NCBI GenBank assembly: GCA_964401865.1
Contig: CAYNZZ010000019.1
Location: 1-21,265, forward strand
Source: an uncultured Erysipelotrichaceae bacterium
GTDB taxonomy: Bacteria > Bacillota_I > Bacilli_A > Erysipelotrichales > Erysipelotrichaceae
DNA: 21,265 nt
Direction: 5' to 3'
Shown here: positions 225-21,212 of the stretch, piece by piece
Numbering within the stretch: the first letter of the stretch is position 1
How the letters are laid out: each line of letters opens with the position of its first letter
The notes under the pieces: model-generated
What the model saw: the letters and a program-made list of their open reading frames with translations, nothing else
Database searches by the model: none
Told to the model about the DNA's origin: nothing
Translations under genes and position numbers: made by a program

Positions 225-1526
225 TTATTCCCACTCAATAGTTGCGCATGGTTTTGGTGACAAATCATAACATACGCGATTTACATTTTCTACTTCGTTC
301 AAAATACGATCTGTAATCTTCTTCAAGATTGGCCATTCAATCTCTTCAATTGAAGCACTCATAGCATCAATAGTATTGATAGCTCTAATAATAACTGGAT
401 ATTCATAACATCTAGCATTATCTTTTACACCGACTGATTTAAAATCAGGAACAATAGTGAAATATTGCCATACTTTCTTATCCAAACCTGCCTTAGCAAA
501 TTCTTCTCTTAAAATAGCATCAGCCTCTCTTACGCATGTCAATCTTTCACGAGTAATGGCTCCAAGACATCTAACTCCAAGTCCTGGTCCTGGGAATGGT
601 TGACGATAAACCATTTCATATGGAAGGCCTAATTCAGTTCCGCACGCTCTAACTTCGTCCTTAAACAAATAATATAAAGGTTCAACTAATTCAAATTTCA
701 AATCTTCAGGCAACCCACCAACATTATGATGTGACTTAACAACTTTAGCAGTCTTGGTTCCGGACTCTACGATATCCGGATAAATTGTTCCTTGAGCCAA
801 GAAATCAATGCCATCAAGTTTCCTTGCTTCTTCTTCAAATACGCGAATGAACTCAGCGCCTATAATCTTACGTTTTTGTTCAGGATCTGCCACACCTGCA
901 AGTTTATCCAAAAATCTATCGGTTGCATCAACATATACTAAATTTGCATGCATTTGATTCTTGAATACTTCAATAACAGCTTCTGACTCACCTTTTCTCA
1001 TTAAACCATGATTAACATGAACGCAAGTCAATTGACTACCGATTGCCTTAATTAATAATGCTGCAACTACCGATGAATCAACGCCACCAGAAAGAGCTAG
1101 CAATACTTTTTTATCGCCAACCTGTCTTTTAATTAGCTCAACTTGGTCAGCAATGAAATTCTTCATATTCCAATTCGCTTCAGCATGACATTTTTCGAAT
1201 AAGAATCGTTTTAAAACTTCTTTTGTTTCTTCTTTACTTAACCAATCAGCTAATGTTTCGCATTTATCTGTTGCATAATTTACAGCCAACACCGGAACAC
1301 CAACTTCATATATATAGTCATTAACATGTATTTCTTTACCATCAACTACATTTAATGGTCCACCATTAATGATGATGCCTTTAACATTATCTAACTTTTT
1401 GAATTCTTCAGCAGTGATATCATGAGCCTTGATTTCGCTATAAACACCTAATTCACGAACTGTACGCGCAATTACAGTATTTTCTTTGCTACCAAGGTCG
1501 AGGATTAAAATCATATCTTGTTTCAT
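225..1526 (-). CDS. guaA: GMP synthase (ATP-pyrophosphatase and dimerisation domains intact; N-terminal GATase domain degenerate and shortened)
   Basis: ORF 225..1550. An SD aaggag lies 8 nt upstream of the ATG at 1526 (MKQDMILILDLGS...), giving 433 aa. It has the P-loop SGGVDSS, KSHHNVGGLP, FPGPGLGVR and the terminal PKPCATIEWE typical of GuaA. The N-terminal part aligns to GATase only up to GVPVLAVNY, where the GxCxG nucleophile elbow should be. Confidence 0.9.
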   Translation of the reverse strand: MKQDMILILDLGSKENTVIARTVRELGVYSEIKAHDITAEEFKKLDNVKGIIINGGPLNVVDGKEIHVNDYIYEVGVPVLAVNYATDKCETLADWLSKEETKEVLKRFLFEKCHAEANWNMKNFIADQVELIKRQVGDKKVLLALSGGVDSSVVAALLIKAIGSQLTCVHVNHGLMRKGESEAVIEVFKNQMHANLVYVDATDRFLDKLAGVADPEQKRKIIGAEFIRVFEEEARKLDGIDFLAQGTIYPDIVESGTKTAKVVKSHHNVGGLPEDLKFELVEPLYYLFKDEVRACGTELGLPYEMVYRQPFPGPGLGVRCLGAITRERLTCVREADAILREEFAKAGLDKKVWQYFTIVPDFKSVGVKDNARCYEYPVIIRAINTIDAMSASIEEIEWPILKKITDRILNEVENVNRVCYDLSPKPCATIEWE

Positions 1527-1745
1527 AAAGTGTGCTCCTTTTTTTAACAAAAAAATTTTACAACAAAATCTAATAATAGTATAGAAAAAAGTACATTTTT
1601 TGATGTTTTTTGCACATTTTTATACGCACCTATAAATAATATAGAAAGGCCAATTAATGCGCAGAAATAAACAAAAGGTTATAATTGGTTCAAACACATA
1701 AATAGATTTGTAATGTGACAAAAGAAAAACATTTACAAAACAAGT

Positions 1746-3013: not shown

Positions 3014-3781
3014 ATGAAATATTATGATGAGATTTTAGATTTAGGAGTTTTCACAAGACGAGATATAGAAGAAATTATTCAAAATCCTAAAACAGCAGAT
3101 TCTTTTATATCACGTTCCTTAAAAAACGGATATATCAAAAGAGTTAAACAGAATTATTATGTTGCAATGGATATTGTAAACAATAATCCACTTTATAATA
3201 AATATTTAATTGCTACAAAGTTAGATAAAAGCAACTATATATCATATCACTCAGCTTTAGAATATTATGGTTACAACAATCAAGTATTTAATGAAGTCGT
3301 ATATTCTGGAAATAACAGAGTGAGTGATTTTGATTTTGAATGTATCACTTATCATTTTGTTCAAAGCAAATGCGATCTCCAAATAGAAACAAAATATGAT
3401 GGCACAAAAGTAACTAGCATTGAAAGAACGGTTATCGATTGTATTGATCAAATAGATTTAGCAGGTGGTATAGAAGAAATTTATCGAGCTTTAGATTCTA
3501 TTCATAATATAAACGAGAGCAAATTAATTGAAATATTACACTTTTACAATAAAAAGGTTTTATTCCAAAGAACAGGTTATATTTTAGAAACATTTAAAAA
3601 TAATTTAGGCATTAGCGATACTACCCTTAATTACATTCAAACTAAAATTGGTTCTTCAAAATGTTATTTAAACTCATCTAGAAAAATTGGTAATACTGCA
3701 TTAAATAAGAAATGGAATGTATGTGTTCCTAACTACACTTCAACAATACTGAGTAAAGGAAGTGATGATAATGAACTTTAA
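3014..3781 (+). CDS. abiEi: Type IV toxin-antitoxin system AbiEi-family antitoxin / transcriptional regulator
   Basis: 255-aa ORF with SD aggtga upstream. It has an N-terminal wHTH-like segment (GVFTRRDIEEII...NGYIKRVKQNYYV) and a C-terminal SYHSALEYYGY...VTSIERTVIDCI segment typical of AbiEi. Its 3' end overlaps the abiEii start by 11 nt. Confidence 0.8.
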   Translation: MKYYDEILDLGVFTRRDIEEIIQNPKTADSFISRSLKNGYIKRVKQNYYVAMDIVNNNPLYNKYLIATKLDKSNYISYHSALEYYGYNNQVFNEVVYSGNNRVSDFDFECITYHFVQSKCDLQIETKYDGTKVTSIERTVIDCIDQIDLAGGIEEIYRALDSIHNINESKLIEILHFYNKKVLFQRTGYILETFKNNLGISDTTLNYIQTKIGSSKCYLNSSRKIGNTALNKKWNVCVPNYTSTILSKGSDDNEL

Positions 3782-4339
3782 TAAAAGACAACTATAAAAA
3801 GAAGCCAATAAATATCATTATGTCAGGGATACTTATGAGAAAGTTGTTCGCTTAACTGATATATTATCTTACATCCACTCTGAACCTTTATTATTTAATA
3901 ATTTAGCTTTAAAAGGTGGAACAGCTATAAATTTAACTATATTTAATCTACCCCGTTTATCTGTTGATATCGATTTAGATTTCACCATCAATTCCTCAAG
4001 AGATGAAATGATGAAAACAAGAAAGCAAATAAAAGCATTGCTTGTAAATTACTTAGAAAAAATGATTACAAACTAGGCAAAAATACTCGTGAACATCACG
4101 CTCTTGATAGCCTTAAAGCTACATATTTTAATGCCAGTGGAAATCTTGATAGCATCAAAATAGAAATAAACTATATGTTAAGAGCTCATATCTATGAACC
4201 TGTCATCGTAAAAACACAAAACTATGGATTGATTGGTGAAGTAGAGGTTAGAACCATCAACCCAATTGAGATATTCGGAAGTAAACTAGCAGCCCTAATG
4301 ACTCGTTCAACACCAAGAGATCTTTATGATTTTTTATAT
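3771..4339 (+). pseudogene. abiEii: AbiEii/AbiGii-family nucleotidyltransferase toxin remnant (in-frame TAA, frameshift, 3' truncation)
   Basis: ATG 3771 gives MNFNKRQL, then TAA (3795..3797), then KEANKYHYVRDTYEKVV...LALKGGTAINL...PRLSVDIDLDF (the GG...DxD nucleotidyltransferase motif). A frame switch occurs at the A-run ~4066..4071. The reading continues DYKLGKNTREHHALDSLK...INYMLRAHIYEP...STPRDLYDFLY and ends where parA begins (4340). Confidence 0.8.
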
Positions 4340-5101
4340 ATGAAAACCACAAAAATTATAGCAGTGGTTAACCAGAAAGGTGGCGTTGGTAAAACAACAA
4401 CAGCCATGAATCTTGGCATAGGATTATCCAAGAATGGCTATAAGACATTGCTTGTTGATTTTGATCCACAAGGAGATTTAACCTGCTGCTTAGGATGGAA
4501 AGACAGTGACTCATTTAATCTGACAACATCTACATTATTAATGAATACCATGAACAATATAGAAACAGATTTTAACGAGCTGATTCTTCATCACAACGAA
4601 GTAGTTGACCTTATTACTTCAAATATTGATCTGGCTTCTACTGAGGTAAATCTTATCCAGGCATTTACTCGAGAAACCATTCTTAGGAACAGTTTAAATC
4701 AAGTAAAGAACAATTATGACTATGTGATTATCGACTGTCCCCCTACTCTAGGCTTATTAACAGTAAACGCTTTAAGTGCAGCATCAGATGTTATCATCCC
4801 TGTTCAGACGCATTACTTATCTACTAAGGGTATGACAAGACTAATTGGATCTATCAGCCAGGTAAAGAATCACGTTAATCCTGATTTGAATATTGCTGGT
4901 ATCTGCTTAACCTTATATGACGCCAGAACCAATGTTGCCAAGAGCACTGTTGAAGCAGTTAAAGATGGATTCGAAAAGCATATCAAAATCTTTAATACCA
5001 TTATTCCAATGGGCATAAAAGCCAGTGAATCAGGTATAGATGGAAAAAGCGTATATGAATATGCGAAATCATCTGATGTTGTGCTGCCTATGGCAAATTA
5101 A
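4340..5101 (+). CDS. parA: ParA/Soj-type partition ATPase (C-terminal frameshift; track ORF 4175..5101 is an AbiEii-ParA chimera)
   Basis: MKTTKIIAVVNQKGGVGKTTT carries the deviant Walker A; DCPPTLG is also present. The first 55 codons of the track ORF are AbiEii sequence. Near ~5075 another frame reads AAYGKLTKEIINVTQKNKTELMR* and ends at 5152..5154, just before the parB SD. That looks like the native C-terminus. Confidence 0.85.
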   Translation: MKTTKIIAVVNQKGGVGKTTTAMNLGIGLSKNGYKTLLVDFDPQGDLTCCLGWKDSDSFNLTTSTLLMNTMNNIETDFNELILHHNEVVDLITSNIDLASTEVNLIQAFTRETILRNSLNQVKNNYDYVIIDCPPTLGLLTVNALSAASDVIIPVQTHYLSTKGMTRLIGSISQVKNHVNPDLNIAGICLTLYDARTNVAKSTVEAVKDGFEKHIKIFNTIIPMGIKASESGIDGKSVYEYAKSSDVVLPMAN

Positions 5102-15400: not shown

Positions 15401-15434
15401 GGGAGATTCCTCAGTGGAGTCTCCCCTATTTTTT
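15401..15434. terminator. Strong rho-independent terminator between the convergent blocks
   Basis: gggagattcc-tcagt-ggagtctccc is a 10-bp stem including one G-U pair. It is followed by ctatttttta on the + strand. Confidence 0.8.
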
Positions 15435-15475: not shown

Positions 15476-16192
15476 TCACTGCCATTCTTCACTATCAAAG
15501 GTTATTAACCCCTCAGCAGTCATTCTTGCTATTGCACTCAATGAATGATTTTCTTGTTTCGATATATGAACATTTACCTTTTTACCGGTATTTATATCAA
15601 TTCCTAAATAAAATCTATGGCATACAACATGAATATACTCAAAAACCGGCTGTTTACACTCTAAAGATTCCATAATCCAATCAACAATGTTATTCTCTGC
15701 ATCTTTTGTTGGCATTTCAGGCAAAATAACAACTAACTCCACTCTTTCATAATGGCATAAATAGCAGGGGAGTTTCTCCAATTTTCTATAAATGCTATAT
15801 TGAATAAATTGTTTTTCATTGACAGATGTAGATGCTGGAGCAACGGCGATATACCCAATTTCTGACTTAGCAACAGAATAATTCTCTTTCTCTATTGCGG
15901 AAAGAAGTTTTTTATCATATGTGTTACTGTCATCTTCGCAAAGCTGTGCAAATAATCTAGAAGTTTTCATATCTCTTTCCTGAACAGCTGCCGTCACTTC
16001 TATACCGGTTTTATTATCAGGATCTTGCAAATCTGGTGCGTCTCTCGCAATAAAAGAACCATATTTAATAGGATTAATATATTTTAATGTAGCTAAAACC
16101 CGATATTCTTGAGATAGTTTTAACAGTTGTGGAGATATACTTCTCTTAGGCTTATATTGCAATATACGCTCTGTAAAGAGATTCATATCCAA
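15476..16192 (-). CDS. Hypothetical protein, last gene of the operon; possible PD-(D/E)xK-like nuclease motif
   Basis: 238-aa ORF. SD-like agagg lies 5 nt before TTG 16192; ATG 16186 is an alternative start. The gap to the upstream stop is 8 nt. The segment ARDAPDLQDPDNKTGIEVTAAVQE resembles a PD...(D/E)x(K/T) core. I recognise no family. Confidence 0.6.
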   Translation of the reverse strand: MDMNLFTERILQYKPKRSISPQLLKLSQEYRVLATLKYINPIKYGSFIARDAPDLQDPDNKTGIEVTAAVQERDMKTSRLFAQLCEDDSNTYDKKLLSAIEKENYSVAKSEIGYIAVAPASTSVNEKQFIQYSIYRKLEKLPCYLCHYERVELVVILPEMPTKDAENNIVDWIMESLECKQPVFEYIHVVCHRFYLGIDINTGKKVNVHISKQENHSLSAIARMTAEGLITFDSEEWQ

Positions 16193-16200
16193 ATTAGCCT

Positions 16201-17566
16201 CTATTTGTTAATAGCAGGAGGAATACATCCACATACGTCAGACAGTTCACTAACAGAATTTAGAGGTACCCAATCTACCATCCCCGGTTTCCATACCAAG
16301 CTATTGCTTATTATTTGTCCAGTTATAGCCATCTGCTTCAAAGCATCTAAATTAAATGGACCTGTTGCCTGGTTGTTGATAGCAACATAATACCCAACAG
16401 CAGGAACAGGAGGCGGAGTAGTGGTTGACTGAACAGTCTGATTCACATTTGACATCATTCCACCCATGATTCCTGCTACATTTTGTCCAACAGCACTTCC
16501 GATAGCCATACCAGCCATCATTGTTGCGGGATTAAATCCAGTATTATTACCACCTAGATCAACACCCGATGCACCACTTGCGCCCATTCCGCCAAGAGCT
16601 TCTGCTCCTGCAATGCCAACACTTGCCTGCATTTCAGTTTGATAAGCAGCAAAGTTCGATGTCTGCGTTTGTTTGTGCTGCGCATATTGTGCTTCCTCGC
16701 GTTGAATTCGAAGTGTTTCTGCATAATTTTCTGCCTCTATGCGTTGATTGTCCTGCATTTGTTTAATGTTAACAGCTGTTTGGGCTTTCACCATTTCTGT
16801 AGTCATGGTTTGAGTAATAGCCATTAGCTTAGCATAACCCTCAGACGATTTATCAATTTCTATTGCTCCAATATCAACACCTGATACTTCTACACCAAAA
16901 TCTTCTTTCAATCGTTGGCAAATATCATATTCAACAGCATCGTTTATTTGTGCAATTTTGCTTTCAAGTTGAACAACAGGTATGTTATGAATAGAAGGAG
17001 CATTGGCAACTGCATCTTTTACATATCGGATCACAGAATCACGAATCTGCTTTTCAAAATCTTCTAAACTAAAAGTATTCAGTCTATGCAATTTAATAAA
17101 CTCTCTGTAATTTTCGATTCTAAAGCTGATTGTTCCGCGCACAGCGACAGGAACAGTGAAATCTAAAAAGCGTGGGTCACATACATCAAAAAATGGTACC
17201 CCAAATCTCACTTGAGTAATTCGAGCTAGGTTGATAAAATATACTTCTGCCTGAAATGGTGATCCACCTTCATAAGCAAGTCCAATAATACTGGCAATAA
17301 TAGGAAGGTTTTCTGTATTTAGAACATTATCATATGGACCTTCGACAAAGTCTTGATAAACACCATTTCGCTGATCATATACAAATACAGCCACTTCGCC
17401 ATCTTTTACACGCAAAGGCGAACCCCATCGAATGGCATTTTCTCTACCGTTGTTTCCAGCCTGCGAACCAGCTGGATGCCACTTCCATATCAAATATGAT
17501 GGTTCATCACAGCGAATTTCATCCATAAAACCGCCTGCTTTTTTTTCTTCTATCAAATAAATTCAT
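16201..17566 (-). CDS. YdjI-type SPFH (stomatin/prohibitin/flotillin/HflKC-like) protein with Gly/Met/Ala-rich linker and C-terminal GYF_2 domain; 5' end frameshifted in an A8 run
   Basis: The body (ORF 16201..17556) aligns to the COG4260/YdjI pattern: ...IWKW...LRVKDGEVAVFV...NLPII...GGSPFQAEVYFIN.... A Q-rich coiled region follows, then GGMGASGASG...AGIMGGMM low complexity, TTTPPPVP, then YYVAINNQATGPFNLDALKQMAITGQIISNSLVWKPGMVDWVPLNSVSEL (GYF_2-like, 16243..16395). A strong SD aggagg plus ATG 17566 encodes MNLFDRRKK, the family-typical start, in another frame. The frames meet in the A8 run at 17539..17546. Confidence 0.8.
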
Positions 17567-17577
17567 ATTATTTCCTC

Positions 17578-19908
17578 CTATTGTTGTATAGGTCTACCTT
17601 TTAGTTTTGGACAATTTGCAAAAGCATCTTTCCCAATAATTGTGTCATCGTTCCAAATAGTTGCACTGCTCAATTCCGAACAACCATCAAATGCGTGTTC
17701 ACCAACTTCTTTTGTATTGAATCCAATACTAATACTAGGCAATGAGCTACAATCTGCGAATGCGTAATCATCTATATCTGGATCGCCCCATAAAATTACG
17801 CTTGTCAAATCAGTGCATTTTTCAAAGGCATGTTTTCCAATATATGTTGTTTCATTTGGAATACTTATTTTTTGAAGAGATGTACATCCGTAGAAAGCGT
17901 AATCACCTATGGTTTCTATATCTGCCCAGAAAATAACGTTTTCTAGTGTCGTGCAATTTTTAAATGCAGATTCTCCAATACTTGTAACTTTATGCCCATC
18001 TATTTTACTATCTATTGTTAAATGGTTTCCGTCTCCACTAAATCCAGTAATCTCAGCATTTCCATTTTTTAAAACTTTGTATTCAACAGTTAACTCAACT
18101 GTCTTGCTGGATTCAACTTCCTGATTTGCATTATTCAGTTCTGGCATTTTATTTACGACATCTTCATCCAATCGCCTTACAACTAAGTTTATTTCCTCAT
18201 AATTTTGGCTGCGGATTAAATTATCATATTCCTGTCCTTTGCTATCTGTTTCATATTGCAAACGTAGTTCGGTATTAACCTTAATATCCTGTGAAACGAC
18301 AATATATTGTTTAAGACTATCTTCACTGCTATCATCAATGAAAGAACCGTCTTCTGATGTAAATGATATTCGAAGTTTCCCTTTACCATAGTAATCAACT
18401 CGATCATTTCCGTAATAATCACCAAATGAAGCTGCATTCCTACCAACATAGTCACGAATATAATACAAATGCCTATCTAAAGATGGAGAGATTTCAACAT
18501 ACTCAGGCTGATAGCCTGCAGAACCTATAGCGGAAACATATAACACAATTTCCTCATAACTTTGATAATCAACTAAGTTACTATATGGTCTACCTTTGCT
18601 ATCTCGTAGATGAACAATAGTTAGATTTGTTCCAGCTCGCAAGTTTTGTTCAACGACAGTATATTGCTTCTTTATTTCATCATTTTTAAAGAAGACCATC
18701 CCATCTTCTGAGACAAACACAATACGCAAACGCCCTTTTCCATATTCATCAATTAGATAATCTCCGTATTCTTTTCCTATAGAAGCCACATTTTTTCCTA
18801 TGTAATTGCGAATTTGATAAGTATAGATTCCCTGGGAATCATCAGACTCCATGTTTTCTGTAATCGTTGGACTTTCATGTTTTGAACTTACCATATTCTT
18901 TGGCGCTACTAAGTTACCTATTGCATATGTCACAAAAAGAATCAACAAACAAACAACTGTAACAACTAGCGATGTTACATTTAGTGATGTATTTCTTTCA
19001 GGGATTTTCTTACCATTTTTAACCGTTCTAACCAAAATGATAATACAACAAATAACTTCAACAATAAGTATCAACTGGAATGCGTTTGTTCCAACACTAT
19101 CTAAATTTTCCCTACATAAAGGAATCATTACAATAATGTTTAATATCAATCCGGATAATGTTACAAACTTTGGAAGTATATCCTTACATTTAAGAACTAT
19201 CGGAATAAAAATAGCACCAGCAACAAAATCAAGCATTAGAAGTAACTGAAAACCATTTGTTCCAACATTGTCAAGATTAACTCTACACATAGGAAGCAAA
19301 ATAAAAATACTAAGAAGCCAACCAAAAACGATAATAAGTCGAGGAAGTGTCGGGATAATTTCAGCGAATGCGAATCCTATTTTTTTTACGCTTTGTATGG
19401 TCCTTTTATGCTCTAGTTGTTTCAAAATTGCTTGATATTGCGCTTCAATTTCATTCAAGTCATTCTTTTCACGGAACACAAGTTTCGCTTTCTGCATAAC
19501 CTGCTCTAGTTTAGCTTGCCAAGCTGCAGATATTTCTCCATCTAAACTTTGGTTAATATTTGATGATGCAAGAATCAAAAACTCCCATATGTCTTCTTTA
19601 GCATTAGGAATAGGAAAATGACGAATTACGGATATTTTTTCCAATTCGCCTGAAGCTTTGGACAATTGATCTGCAAACACTTTCACGGAGTCAGTTGCCT
19701 CGGCACCTCGAATTTCATAACCGCAAGTTGGACATCTTGATGCAAAAGAATCAAGTAACTCACCACAATTCGGACATTTATATATTTTTCCTTCATATAT
19801 AGGTTTTCGGATTGATTGTATTTCATCCGGTTTAATTGCAGTCCCACAATTATCACAGAATTTCGCACCATCACGTAGTTTTTGACCACAATTCGGACAG
19901 TAATTCAT
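17578..19908 (-). CDS. Multidomain membrane protein: two N-terminal zinc ribbons, helical domain, ~5 TM segments, two tandem ~100-aa extracytoplasmic domains, C-terminal BspA-type leucine-rich repeats
   Basis: SD aaaggaag plus ATG 19908 gives MNYCPNCGQKLRDGAKFCDNCG and YKCPNCGELLDSFASRCPTCG (CxxC...CxxC twice). FPIPNAKEDIWEFLILASSNI follows. Hydrophobic segments fall at about aa 203-219, 232-254, 261-277, 289-308 and 324-346 (track numbering). The tandem domains begin YTYQIRNYIGKNVASIG... and LYYIRDYVGRNAASFG.... The LRR_5-like repeats read VTSIGESAFKNCTTLENV / IETIGDYAFYGCTSLQKI / TTYIGKHAFEKCTDLTSV / IDDYAFADCSSLPSI / KEVGEHAFDGCSELSSA / TIIGKDAFANCPKL. Confidence 0.8.
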   Translation of the reverse strand: MNYCPNCGQKLRDGAKFCDNCGTAIKPDEIQSIRKPIYEGKIYKCPNCGELLDSFASRCPTCGYEIRGAEATDSVKVFADQLSKASGELEKISVIRHFPIPNAKEDIWEFLILASSNINQSLDGEISAAWQAKLEQVMQKAKLVFREKNDLNEIEAQYQAILKQLEHKRTIQSVKKIGFAFAEIIPTLPRLIIVFGWLLSIFILLPMCRVNLDNVGTNGFQLLLMLDFVAGAIFIPIVLKCKDILPKFVTLSGLILNIIVMIPLCRENLDSVGTNAFQLILIVEVICCIIILVRTVKNGKKIPERNTSLNVTSLVVTVVCLLILFVTYAIGNLVAPKNMVSSKHESPTITENMESDDSQGIYTYQIRNYIGKNVASIGKEYGDYLIDEYGKGRLRIVFVSEDGMVFFKNDEIKKQYTVVEQNLRAGTNLTIVHLRDSKGRPYSNLVDYQSYEEIVLYVSAIGSAGYQPEYVEISPSLDRHLYYIRDYVGRNAASFGDYYGNDRVDYYGKGKLRISFTSEDGSFIDDSSEDSLKQYIVVSQDIKVNTELRLQYETDSKGQEYDNLIRSQNYEEINLVVRRLDEDVVNKMPELNNANQEVESSKTVELTVEYKVLKNGNAEITGFSGDGNHLTIDSKIDGHKVTSIGESAFKNCTTLENVIFWADIETIGDYAFYGCTSLQKISIPNETTYIGKHAFEKCTDLTSVILWGDPDIDDYAFADCSSLPSISIGFNTKEVGEHAFDGCSELSSATIWNDDTIIGKDAFANCPKLKGRPIQQ
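18169..18828 (-). repeat. Tandem duplication of a ~100-aa extracytoplasmic domain (PASTA-like spacing of conserved G/hydrophobic positions)
   Basis: Y.IR.Y.G.N.AS.G..YG....D.YGKG.LRI.F.SEDG.......E...KQY.VV.Q.......L........SKG..Y.NL...Q.YEEI.L.V is shared by the copies at aa ~375-475 and ~494-594. Confidence 0.65.
19036..19299 (-). repeat. Internal duplication of a TM hairpin unit (period 171 nt / 57 aa) inside the giant gene
   Basis: LLPMCRVNLDNVGTNGFQLLLMLDF versus MIPLCRENLDSVGTNAFQLILIVEV. At DNA level, tttgttccaaca recurs at 19085 and 19256, exactly 171 nt apart. Confidence 0.7.
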
Positions 19909-19942
19909 ATTCATCATCTTCCTTTCATTTATAATCCCAAAA

Positions 19943-20155
19943 TCAATCAACGCTATCTTCTACTGCATCGCAAATATCTCCAATATTGCATTCAAGGTAC
20001 TCACAAATTCGAAGAAGCACCGATAATGCTACTTCTTCGTTCTTTCTCAGCTTTGTCATAGTACCTGTTGCAATACACAAGTCTCTTCGCATAGTCACAG
20101 GAGATATGTCTTTCTCAATCAGTAGTATCCATAGCTTTTTATAGCTTATTTTCAT
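19943..20155 (-). CDS. XRE/Cro-type helix-turn-helix transcriptional regulator, first gene of the operon
   Basis: ATG 20155 gives MKISYKKLWILLIEKDISPVTMRRDLCIATGTMTKLRKNEEVALSVLLRICEYLECNIGDICDAV (70 aa). This is a common short HTH family (MKI.Y.KLW.LL.....K.DL......S..T..KL.KNE.V....L.KIC..L.C.I.DI). The track's 17-codon N-terminal extension overlaps the promoter. Confidence 0.8.
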   Translation of the reverse strand: MKISYKKLWILLIEKDISPVTMRRDLCIATGTMTKLRKNEEVALSVLLRICEYLECNIGDICDAVEDSVD

Positions 20156-20196
20156 AGAAATGGCCCTTTCACACTCCAAACTATTTATATTATTTA

Positions 20197-20225
20197 AATA
20201 TATCATCGATATACAAAGAATTCAA
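20197..20225 (-). promoter_or_regulatory. Sigma-70-type promoter candidate for the HTH-led operon (TTGAAT-17 nt-TATATT on the minus strand)
   Basis: The -35 is the reverse complement of 20220..20225, followed by a 17-nt spacer. The -10 is the reverse complement of 20197..20202. It lies ~40 nt upstream of ATG 20155. Confidence 0.45.
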
Positions 20226-20285
20226 GATTTCCATGCATATAATAAGCATTAATTCGCAAGACATTGCGATATTTTAGTGTAAACT

Positions 20286-20962
20286 TCAATTATCATCCGA
20301 AATAATCTTTGCATATTTTACAAATGTGTTACGTGTTATTTTATGTTTTTTCAACAAATCAGATATCTTTAGATTTCTATTCCCAACTGACTGATTTAGA
20401 TACTTAATAATATCTTCCCTTAATTCATCACTCATCTTATCGAGTTTACCAATGGCTCTACCTGGTTTCTTTTCCGAAAAAGATAATCCATCTTTTATTC
20501 TCTTCGATAAGATTAATCTTTCTTGTTCAACACGATTAAGTTCAACGATTAAAAGTAGCTTAACCGTTGATTCTAACGATACCTGAGCAACTAGATCCTG
20601 CTGTTCAGCCACATGAAGTAATTCCTTTATATATGTGTTGATACTGTTGGATTATCAATAAAGACTAATTCGATCCCTTTTCTCATCAACTCCATATACT
20701 TGTCATAGCCGTTTAGAGCTTCTCTCGTAAAACGAGAAATGTCTTTAAAAACAATGGTGTCACCTTCTCTTGCCAAAGATTCCAGTTTCTTCCATTCTTT
20801 TCTGTTGTCAAAAGATTTGCCAGATTCATCTTCTTTATATTCAGCAGCAAAAACAACACCATTATCTTTTGCATATTGAGCTAAATCCTTTTCCTGTCTA
20901 TTAAACTTTTGCTTCTGACGTTCTTCTTTCGTTGAAATTCTCATATAACTTAAATAAGCCAT
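20286..20962 (-). pseudogene. Small serine recombinase (resolvase/invertase family) split by one frameshift
   Basis: SD gggggtg plus ATG 20962 gives MAYLSYMRISTKEERQKQ, which holds the catalytic Ser context; ...IVFKDISRFTRE... follows. The frame ends PTVSTHI* at 20627. The adjacent frame continues YIKELLHVAEQQDLVAQVSLE...SKRIKDGL...GRAIGKL... with a C-terminal HTH (ISDLLKKHKITRNTFVKYAK). The frameshift is at ~20615..20630. Confidence 0.8.
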
Positions 20963-20990
20963 AAGCACCCCCAAGTATAGTGAATATATC

Positions 20991-21212
20991 GTGCCTTTGA
21001 TGGAACGGCTCGGCTTTGATCAAACGCCTCATTGTTGTAGACATACCTTTATTTCTTTACTTGCCGAAGCAAAAATATCACCAACATATACAAAACTGAT
21101 TGTTGGCCATAAAGGTGCTATGTCATTGACTGAAAAGGTATATACGCATATCGACATGAGCCATCTTCTTGAAGCGGTAAACTCAATTTACTATCCGAAA
21201 ATAAACCAATAA
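20991..21212 (+). pseudogene. Tyrosine recombinase/integrase, C-terminal ~70 aa only
   Basis: TPHCCRHTFISLL (HxxR box), IVGHKG and EKVYTHID (catalytic Tyr context). There is no upstream catalytic-domain or N-terminal sequence. The fragment begins within ~15 nt of the divergent serine-recombinase SD. Confidence 0.8.

Follow-up and report, generated by a model that had tools for sequence, protein, structure and literature searches.

A conserved HTH_26/zinc-ribbon/SPFH-GYF_2 gene trio of gut Firmicutes with likeness to the SamGHI membrane-stress module

The flotillin, HflK/C and stomatin systems, built around SPFH domains, are expected to assemble at the membrane as oligomeric rings or cages. 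The studied system that the locus described here most resembles, judged by its architecture, is another one, namely the PspA-SamGHI (PspA-YdjGHI) membrane-stress module of Bacillus subtilis. Its YdjG is a zinc-ribbon membrane protein (PMC9239133). YdjG and YdjH are needed to bring YdjI, and via YdjI also PspA, to the membrane; YdjGHI has been renamed SamGHI, and the recruitment of SamI to the membrane by SamG/SamH has been shown experimentally (PMC8581546; bioRxiv 10.64898/2026.02.06.704340). A further precedent is the SPFH/Band 7 plus GYF architecture listed by Balaji and Aravind in 2007, who proposed peptide binding by bacterial GYF domains; their account is one of architecture only, with no operon, partner, regulator or function (PMC2034487). 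Here we analyze a 21,265-nt stretch of DNA from an uncultured Erysipelotrichaceae bacterium (GenBank assembly GCA_964401865.1, contig CAYNZZ010000019.1, positions 1 to 21,265; hereinafter the window), in which four genes code for a helix-turn-helix (HTH) regulator of the HTH_26 family, a large zinc-ribbon membrane protein, an SPFH protein with a C-terminal GYF_2 domain (SPFH-GYF_2) and a 238-aa protein. The first three of these form a conserved trio, a widespread and unstudied module of gut Firmicutes. We lean, with slightly better than even confidence, towards reading the locus as one operon that combines a horizontally mobile, SamGHI-like membrane module with one optional extra gene.

About 100 related loci were compared overall, and the counts given below refer, unless stated otherwise, to a sample of 80 genomic loci from different species carrying SPFH-GYF_2, whose neighboring genes were found by naive open reading frame (ORF) calling and phmmer searches with parts of the window proteins. 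Most of the sampled loci are clostridial (Lachnospiraceae, Oscillospiraceae, Ruminococcus, Sedimentibacter), the others being from Bacilli and, in one case, Gardnerella; nearly all members are from gut or rumen Firmicutes. In 77 of the 80 loci, a membrane protein combining zinc ribbons with the cytosolic domain seen in the window protein is encoded directly upstream of the anchor-less SPFH protein, an arrangement shared with SamGHI; the gap between the two genes is mostly 2-40 nt, and 12 of the 80 loci have two zinc-ribbon genes in tandem at this position. The HTH_26 gene is found upstream in 71/80, several of the exceptions lying at or near a contig end, and its product varies least of all components, at 73-100% identity between loci (mean 83%). 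The SPFH-GYF_2 family comprises at least 8000 homologue clusters, many of them 62-71% identical to the window protein, and we count identities of 62-70% across distant taxa as a sign of horizontal transfer. The fourth gene does not share this pattern: none of the 80 sampled SPFH loci contains a member of its family. A first-pass annotation of the window, made from the letters alone, had proposed all four genes as a single system and suggested neighborhood co-conservation as one check. The first three genes indeed co-occur; the set of four does not survive as a conserved unit, with the gene for the 238-aa protein being facultative and found also by itself beside restriction genes.

In the window, the four minus-strand ORFs (15476-20225) share their orientation and are tightly packed between a promoter candidate and a hairpin, just as the first-pass annotation had it. 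The stop codon of the HTH gene (19943) is separated by 34 nt from the ATG of the large gene (19908, beginning MNYCPNCG); the TAG of the latter (17578-17580) falls within an AGGAGG, 11 nt ahead of the SPFH ATG at 17566; and the SPFH stop (16201) is followed by the fourth gene after 14 nt, if counted to the ATG at 16186, or 8 nt, if counted to a TTG. Since its homologues are 233-238 aa long, we take ATG 16186 as the start of the fourth gene. As far as gene order and spacing indicate, the four genes are one operon, a single tightly packed transcription unit. TTGACA/TATAAT-like boxes recur in related loci at the same relative position as the promoter candidate (Table 1). The GC-rich hairpin between the convergent fourth and CHAP genes is followed by a T-run on the plus strand and by a weaker one downstream on the minus strand (TTTCATCATTT), and is a probable bidirectional terminator. 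Neither promoter-like nor terminator-like sites are enriched over shuffles in the window, so these two count as consensus matches only.

Table 1. Coordinates of the features discussed, in window numbering.
Feature	Position	Strand	Basis
16-bp palindrome TCGCAA-N4-TTGCGA, candidate operator; ends 28 nt upstream of the -35 hexamer	20254..20269	.	Upstream-region alignment
Sigma-70-type promoter candidate; -35 TTGAAT 20225-20220, 17-nt spacer, TG-extended -10 TATATT 20202-20197	20197..20225	-	Consensus scan, 9/12 hexamer matches
HTH_26 (Cro/C1-type) regulator, 70 aa	19943..20155	-	Pfam HTH_26 4.7e-16
Zinc-ribbon membrane protein, 776 aa from MNYCPNCG	17578..19908	-	Pfam, hydropathy, AlphaFold model
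Two zinc ribbons, residues 1-70	19699-19908	-	DZR/Zn_Ribbon_1, 1e-10 to 1e-13 (DZR 1.3e-10)
Predicted conserved four-helix cytosolic domain, residues 73-175	about 19384-19692	-	Hydropathy and model
Five predicted transmembrane helices, residues about 176-334	about 18907-19383	-	Hydropathy and model
Two tandem ectodomains, ~119 aa each	18463-18834, 18109-18462	-	Repeat alignment
BspA-type LRR_5 domain	17599-17985	-	Pfam LRR_5 2.6e-34
SPFH-GYF_2 protein: coiled-coil region, Gly/Ala/Met-rich low-complexity linker, PPPVP motif, C-terminal GYF_2	16201..17566	-	Pfam
A8 homopolymer shifting the SPFH frame after codon 9; A7 in sister assemblies	17539..17546	-	Alignment with L096, L097
SPFH (Band_7_1) domain	about 16849-17442	-	Band_7_1 9.1e-24, 84.7 bits
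GYF_2 domain	about 16243-16392	-	GYF_2 2.2e-17
Facultative fourth gene, 236 aa from ATG 16186 (238 aa from TTG); conserved E27, P51-D52, E63-V64-T65, K135	15476..16186	-	Family alignment
GC-rich hairpin between the convergent fourth and CHAP genes; 10-bp stem, 6 GC pairs	15401..15425	.	Consensus scan
AbiEi, upstream of the AbiEii-AAA_31 ORF	3014-3781

The domain composition first suggested for the trio (HTH, zinc ribbon with transmembrane [TM] region and leucine-rich repeats [LRRs], SPFH with GYF_2) is borne out by Pfam, hydropathy and modeling. The large protein was examined by hydropathy, taking flanking charges into account, and by an AlphaFold model covering residues 1-343 (pLDDT 81.6); both predict an N-in, five-TM, C-out topology, which would place the tandem domains and the LRRs outside the cell. 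The LRR_5 domain follows the fifth TM helix on the predicted outer side, as befits a BspA-type surface LRR, though for its anchoring the large protein relies on TM helices and not, like BspA-type surface proteins, on a signal peptide and wall anchor. Over 94 aa, the tandem ectodomains show 48% identity (score 220; shuffles, 32 +/- 6), and they are visible also as DNA repeats with a 357-nt spacing. The TM block shows an internal duplication in its loops (PMCRVNLDNVGTNGFQ / PLCRENLDSVGTNAFQ). Pfam gave zero matches for the tandem repeats, the cytosolic domain and the TM block, and no fold match for the N-terminal model (residues 1-343) was found in the PDB. A relationship to TcaA at the equivalog level is not apparent, as only residues 15-45, in the zinc ribbon, align (22.7 bits, cut-off 550), and there is a weak match to the LRR adhesin HupY/LrrG. 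At window 18950-19330 (residues about 195-320), a TM hairpin is duplicated, with near-identical outer loops (LPMCRVNLDNVGTNGFQLL and IPLCRENLDSVGTNAFQLI) in which the positions of the Cys, Asn-Leu-Asp and Gly-x-Asn are conserved across zinc-ribbon homologues (alignment consensus).

Searches with residues 1-610 recovered homologues that share the N-terminal part and carry in addition LRR_5, DUF6591 (PF20234), DUF4839 (PF16127), other ectodomains or none, with lengths ranging from 210 to 785 aa across loci. The N-terminal 340 residues are conserved, and an alignment of 58 zinc-ribbon proteins has 18 invariant positions, namely the eight zinc-ribbon cysteines, G8, G22, P46 and G49 beside them, and I95, P101, N102, W130, K133 and Q136 of the cytosolic domain. 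The zinc-ribbon protein thus consists of a constant cytosolic/membrane part and an exchangeable extracellular part, and the LRR sensor suggested in the first-pass annotation does not define the system, being one of several interchangeable ectodomains. Just downstream of the SPFH gene, 30 of the 80 loci (e.g., L014, L025, L037, L039, L068, L071, L074, L082) encode one more zinc-ribbon protein; these measure 151-692 aa, the larger ones about 560-690 aa, and most have several predicted TM segments. DUF6591 or DUF4839 appears to be present in many of them. Modules can accordingly encode two or three alternative receptors per SPFH protein.

Such ectodomains raise the question of adhesion: the module could be mobile cargo for surface attachment and colonization, with the zinc-ribbon protein acting as an adhesin for host or neighbor-cell ligands and the SPFH protein clustering it. 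The strength of the LRR_5 match (2.6e-34), the resemblance to HupY/LrrG, the thioester-domain (TED), SpaA-type and sortase genes on the same element, an ectodomain diversity consistent with ligand diversification and the gut or rumen origin of nearly all members speak for this. Against it, many receptors of 210-300 aa with little or no ectodomain still keep their HTH and SPFH partners, so adhesion cannot be the common function; moreover, an ectodomain of ~440 residues would need to span the Gram-positive wall from its membrane anchor, and a simple adhesin needs neither two zinc ribbons nor a conserved cytosolic domain. We therefore regard an adhesion module as quite unlikely.

The SPFH protein is best matched by Band_7_1, its score with the classical Band_7 profile (18.6 bits) being under the cut-off of 23.6 bits; YdjI belongs to the same Pfam family. 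Like the flotillins FloA/FloT, HflK/C of the HflK/C-FtsH system and stomatin of the stomatin-NfeD system, it has an SPFH domain followed by a coiled-coil region, but it differs from them in having no N-terminal TM helix or hairpin and in its best match, and no NfeD or FtsH partner gene lies in the operon or adjacent to it in the window. Indeed, no TM or hydrophobic segment is predicted in the window SPFH protein or in any of its 80 homologues, and it is by these predictions a soluble, anchor-less protein. The low-complexity linker and small C-terminal domain that follow are an organization shared with SamI. Hence, the early comparison with YdjG and YdjI is upheld in the pairing of a zinc-ribbon membrane protein with a soluble Band_7_1 SPFH protein, and also in that PspA was not seen. 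A TTTPPPVP motif directly precedes GYF_2 (window 16393-16416), with PPP[VI]P in every homologue inspected; the PPPVP motif may be a self-ligand of the proline-binding GYF domain.

SPFH homologues begin MGLFxKxKxGGFMDxIRCDEP, and the window version reads MNLFDRRKK before running into the A8 tract; the long ORF then picks up again at a TTG or at ATG 17526. Elsewhere, this locus has A7 and an intact 454-aa allele (P0142) that starts 11 nt past the upstream stop. As at least 24 contigs carry the 454-aa form and a single one the 441-aa form, the lesion is private to this assembly, being either a sequencing error or a recent variant, and the repair that the first-pass annotation had suggested testing is already the natural state in at least 24 others. 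The frameshift is one of the observations that could suggest that the genes are unrelated neighbors, or remnants decaying on a mobile element that is itself dead, and share no function. The element is certainly degraded (split resolvase, TraG/VirB4-like and DprA fragments, an AbiEii-ParA remnant), and, as noted, its promoter- and terminator-like sites are not enriched over shuffles. Nonetheless, the order and spacing of the trio and its operator are kept in 71-77 of the 80 genomes, across many families, the other three ORFs are intact, and so is the SPFH gene in the sister assemblies; decay without joint function is strongly disfavored and in our estimate very improbable.

We place the HTH start at ATG 20155 because homologues of the regulator are 68-76 aa long and the upstream ATG 20206 lies inside the -10 box; a start at 20206 was rejected on the same two counts. 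The regulator scores 72.9 bits against VanU, where the equivalog cut-off is 150, no van genes occur in the window, and PADLOC returned only a marginal ThsB match (E=0.0042). An alignment of the regions upstream of HTH genes brings out a palindrome, most often TCGCAAGAAGTTGCGA. Allowing up to two mismatches, 57 of 70 non-redundant loci have it, 26 of them exactly and 27 with a single mismatch; in the other 13 it is mostly degenerate. In the carrier loci it stands shortly upstream of the -35 box; 56 carriers have it 82-136 nt ahead of the HTH start codon, and one has it at 198 nt. The rest of the same loci (883 kb) contains 25 weak matches and no exact one; in the 21 kb of the window, 20254-20269 is the single match with at most one mismatch (expected 0.02). 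A consensus scan had scored this site as a plus-strand 'terminator-like' hairpin. Conservation of the sequence itself, not of pairing alone, beside unrelated upstream genes, together with an asymmetric center found in both orientations, argues for a dimeric protein-binding site, and we infer that it is probably the operator of the HTH_26 protein.

Compared with SamGHI, the module described here has neither pspA nor a YdjH-like gene in the window; certain relatives do encode one more small zinc-ribbon/TM2-domain protein or a second protein with zinc ribbons. In place of sigma-W control there are a dedicated HTH_26 regulator and the palindrome, the receptor has five predicted TM helices and interchangeable ectodomains, and the module often resides on mobile elements. 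Our preferred reading, a mobile SamGHI-like module plus an optional gene, would operate as follows. A dimer of the HTH_26 protein would bind the palindrome, centered ~70 nt upstream of the start site, and set operon expression. The zinc-ribbon protein would insert N-in/C-out, its ectodomain (tandem domains and BspA-type LRRs in the window) binding an envelope or external ligand, and its conserved cytosolic domain would recruit the soluble SPFH-GYF_2 protein to the membrane, by analogy with the action of SamG/SamH on SamI. There, the SPFH protein would oligomerize into a scaffold that organizes or stabilizes the local membrane, and its GYF domain may bind proline-rich peptides, either the PPPVP of neighboring subunits or another partner, in replacement of PspA recruitment. 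The 238-aa protein would be an addition, placed in some cases at the operon's 3' end and unneeded by the core module. Envelope-stress protection, ligand sensing and defence are candidate outputs.

Several points weigh against this reading. PspA_IM30 matched none of the window ORFs scanned and is not among the 25 most frequent flanking families in either of two batches of 150 flanking proteins; with pspA not seen, the known output of SamI is missing from the module. The C-terminus of the SPFH protein is GYF_2, in contrast to the zinc finger of SamI, and the likeness to YdjG/YdjH/YdjI is one of architecture, with Pfam family membership adding support in the case of the SPFH protein. As for the palindrome, it might be a recombination site or the target of a different factor. 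Finally, the strong association with mobile elements and defence genes is unlike that of a housekeeping envelope-stress system.

This last association recurs across genomes, in keeping with the mobile, defence-island context that the first-pass annotation had recognized in the window itself (serine recombinase, dead conjugation module, Abi and Fic genes). Local searches found TnpV or a serine recombinase within 8 kb of 22/80 module loci. For about 62 loci, we further compared the three closest genes on either side with Pfam, in the two batches of 150 proteins mentioned above. Recurrent flanking families are TnpV (7), Resolvase (6), Recombinase (6), Phage_integrase (6) and Mob_Pre (3), along with rumA-like tRNA-U5 methyltransferases (9) and GMP synthase (2), the rumA-like and guaA neighbors being common integration sites; DNA methylases, ThsB_TIR, Schlafen/AlbA_2 and AAA_21 are also found. 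PADLOC on the first 150 flanking proteins gave strong matches to AbiLi, AbiEi, AbiD, ThsA, ThsB and LmuB, as well as type I and II methyltransferases and type IV restriction enzymes. These are raw counts without a background rate, and some of the PADLOC families are generic (methyltransferases, ATPases). Not all modules share this setting: some lie among housekeeping genes such as lepA, hemN and degV (L090), and the module was not found on known plasmids. Taken together, the module looks like a frequent cargo of integrative/mobilizable elements and variable islands. Like transposons of the Tn4451/Tn4453 type, whose hallmark genes are TnpX, TnpV and TnpZ/Mob, many modules are flanked by TnpV, Mob_Pre and serine-recombinase genes; this likeness is one of flanking genes, and the cargo is the HTH/zinc-ribbon/SPFH module rather than a resistance gene. 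A 22-kb phage-collection entry labeled 'UNVERIFIED: Bacteriophage sp.' (L098, MT835670.1) has the trio in the midst of genes that, by their ORF starts, are ABC-transporter-like or code for membrane proteins; a quick ORF listing without domain scans revealed no recognizable phage genes, and the entry is probably a bacterial contig.

Given these neighbors, the module might be an undescribed anti-phage or anti-plasmid defence, in which the variable ectodomain would detect phage adsorption, injection or envelope damage, the SPFH-GYF scaffold would trigger membrane remodeling, growth arrest or exclusion, and the 238-aa protein would be an optional nuclease effector. The recombinase, mobilization and integrase genes and the integration-site neighbors fit such a role, as do the defence families among the PADLOC flank matches, the AbiEi, AbiEii and Fic genes of the window itself, the horizontal transfer suggested by the 62-70% identity across distant taxa, and the swapping of ectodomains between relatives, expected in an arms race; the family of the 238-aa protein, moreover, occurs also beside Mrr plus GmrSD and beside a type I restriction-modification system. 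On the other side, none of the PADLOC models accounts for the four proteins: with PADLOC-DB v2.0.0, the zinc-ribbon, SPFH and 238-aa proteins had zero matches, in agreement with the earlier failure to place the genes in any named defence, toxin-antitoxin or secretion system. The conserved trio has no recognized effector domain, the searched literature holds no established link between SPFH proteins and phage defence, mobile elements haul many types of non-defence cargo, and the housekeeping neighborhoods, missing background rate and generic families noted above apply here as well. A defence or surface-exclusion role is thus a possible one, resting on neighborhood association, and we judge the defence explanation rather unlikely. 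Marginally less likely again is its fullest form, that the trio and palindrome make up a new class of mobile membrane-based immune or exclusion system whose ectodomain receptors detect contact with phages or foreign cells and signal via the SPFH scaffold, with an E-PD-ExT-K nuclease as optional effector.

The putative effector of that scheme, the product of the fourth gene, has no Pfam, NCBIfam, PHROG or PADLOC match. Close relatives are few (21 clusters in 5.8 billion proteins), and a full hidden Markov model search recovered 666 representative clusters at E<=0.001 and 208 at <=1e-10, nearly all of them stand-alone proteins of 215-245 aa. Six of ten distinct genomic contexts carry the module and four do not. 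Among the former, the gene lies 3-14 nt past SPFH in the window (with L096 and L097), L009, L007/L008 and L106, comes after a cut SPFH gene in L002, and in L001 precedes the zinc-ribbon gene and follows an LHH toxin/SUKH pair. Among the module-free contexts, it follows a type I HsdM/HsdS pair and another unannotated 236-aa protein (L003); as a 234-aa gene, closes a cassette that includes genes for a multi-zinc-ribbon TM protein and for an ADP-ribosylglycohydrolase-TM protein (L004-L006); occurs singly, immediately upstream of type IV restriction genes (Mrr_cat and GmrSD_N) and beside an insertion sequence (L099-L101); or is near a Y-family polymerase gene (L102-L105). To judge from these arrangements, the fourth gene is a facultative, separately mobile add-on that is dispensable for the core module. 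Two of the contexts have further features of their own. In L001 (6477-9973), genes for an LHH-nuclease polymorphic toxin and SUKH immunity protein stand immediately upstream of the 237-aa gene, with the zinc-ribbon/SPFH pair after it. The L004-L006 cassette, with TnpV nearby, also codes for a YeeR_C protein and a 450-aa protein without annotation; its zinc-ribbon protein is a 505-aa one with five or more zinc ribbons, a TM helix and an ectodomain, and its ADP-ribosylglycohydrolase is fused to a Gly/Ala-rich TM region.

The PD...ExT motif that had prompted the term nuclease-like for the fourth protein does coincide with the best-conserved residues of its family: across 103 divergent members, P51 and K135 are invariant, and E27, D52, G61, E63 and V64 are at least 90% conserved. 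In a structural model (pLDDT 88.5), these residues map to helix 19-37, the two strands 53-55 and 60-66, and helix 121-136; around the motif, secondary structure runs alpha, three beta strands, alpha. PD-(D/E)xK nucleases have in common with this protein a conserved Glu in the first helix, a P-D before a beta strand, an E-x-T in the next strand and, in the model, an alpha/three-beta/alpha core, and the family has restriction-system neighbors; it differs from them in having Thr for the canonical Lys, its sole invariant Lys (K135) lying in a later helix. No fold or profile match, to a nuclease or otherwise, came from Foldseek (PDB, BFVD), Pfam scans of the 103 members or PDB profiles. The fourth protein is possibly a PD-(D/E)xK-like enzyme with a relocated lysine, a motif-level lead.

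Profile scans of the remaining window identified a resolvase in two ORFs, a TraG/VirB4-like fragment, CHAP, Fic, a DprA fragment, sortase, SpaA and TED genes, ParB, an AbiEii-ParA remnant, AbiEi and, at the far end, guaA. The small serine recombinase is split into ORFs of 115 aa (Resolvase domain) and 108 aa and is adjoined by a 73-aa tyrosine-integrase fragment; recombinase and fragment together occupy 20286-20974 on the minus strand and 20991-21212 on the plus strand. Sister assemblies (L096) share this split and have in addition a Y1 transposase fragment; the decay of the recombinase is therefore old and shared. At 4175-5101 on the plus strand, an ORF joins an AbiEii fragment (residues 11-61) to a complete ParA-like AAA_31 ATPase, which looks like a fusion left by deletion. 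The guaA ORF (225-1550, minus strand) is just 441 aa long, its GATase match covering profile positions 1-78 of 190, and may represent an internal deletion or a partial copy made at an integration site.

SPFH proteins are found across every domain of life, and their functions in bacteria are poorly understood. To our knowledge, SamI/YdjI, tied to PspA, is the only studied anchor-less bacterial example. The module reported here would embody the same logic of a receptor and a soluble SPFH protein without PspA, and with its own regulator, operator and swappable extracellular domains. The 238-aa family, with its 666 representative unannotated clusters and conserved acidic/Lys motif, offers a separate, small target for enzyme discovery. 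Because it recurs next to genes for defence and mobility, the module is a sensible choice for screens of defence or exclusion. With defined parts (operator, regulator, receptor and scaffold), it is small enough to be moved into a model Firmicute, where the role of a soluble SPFH scaffold could be probed.

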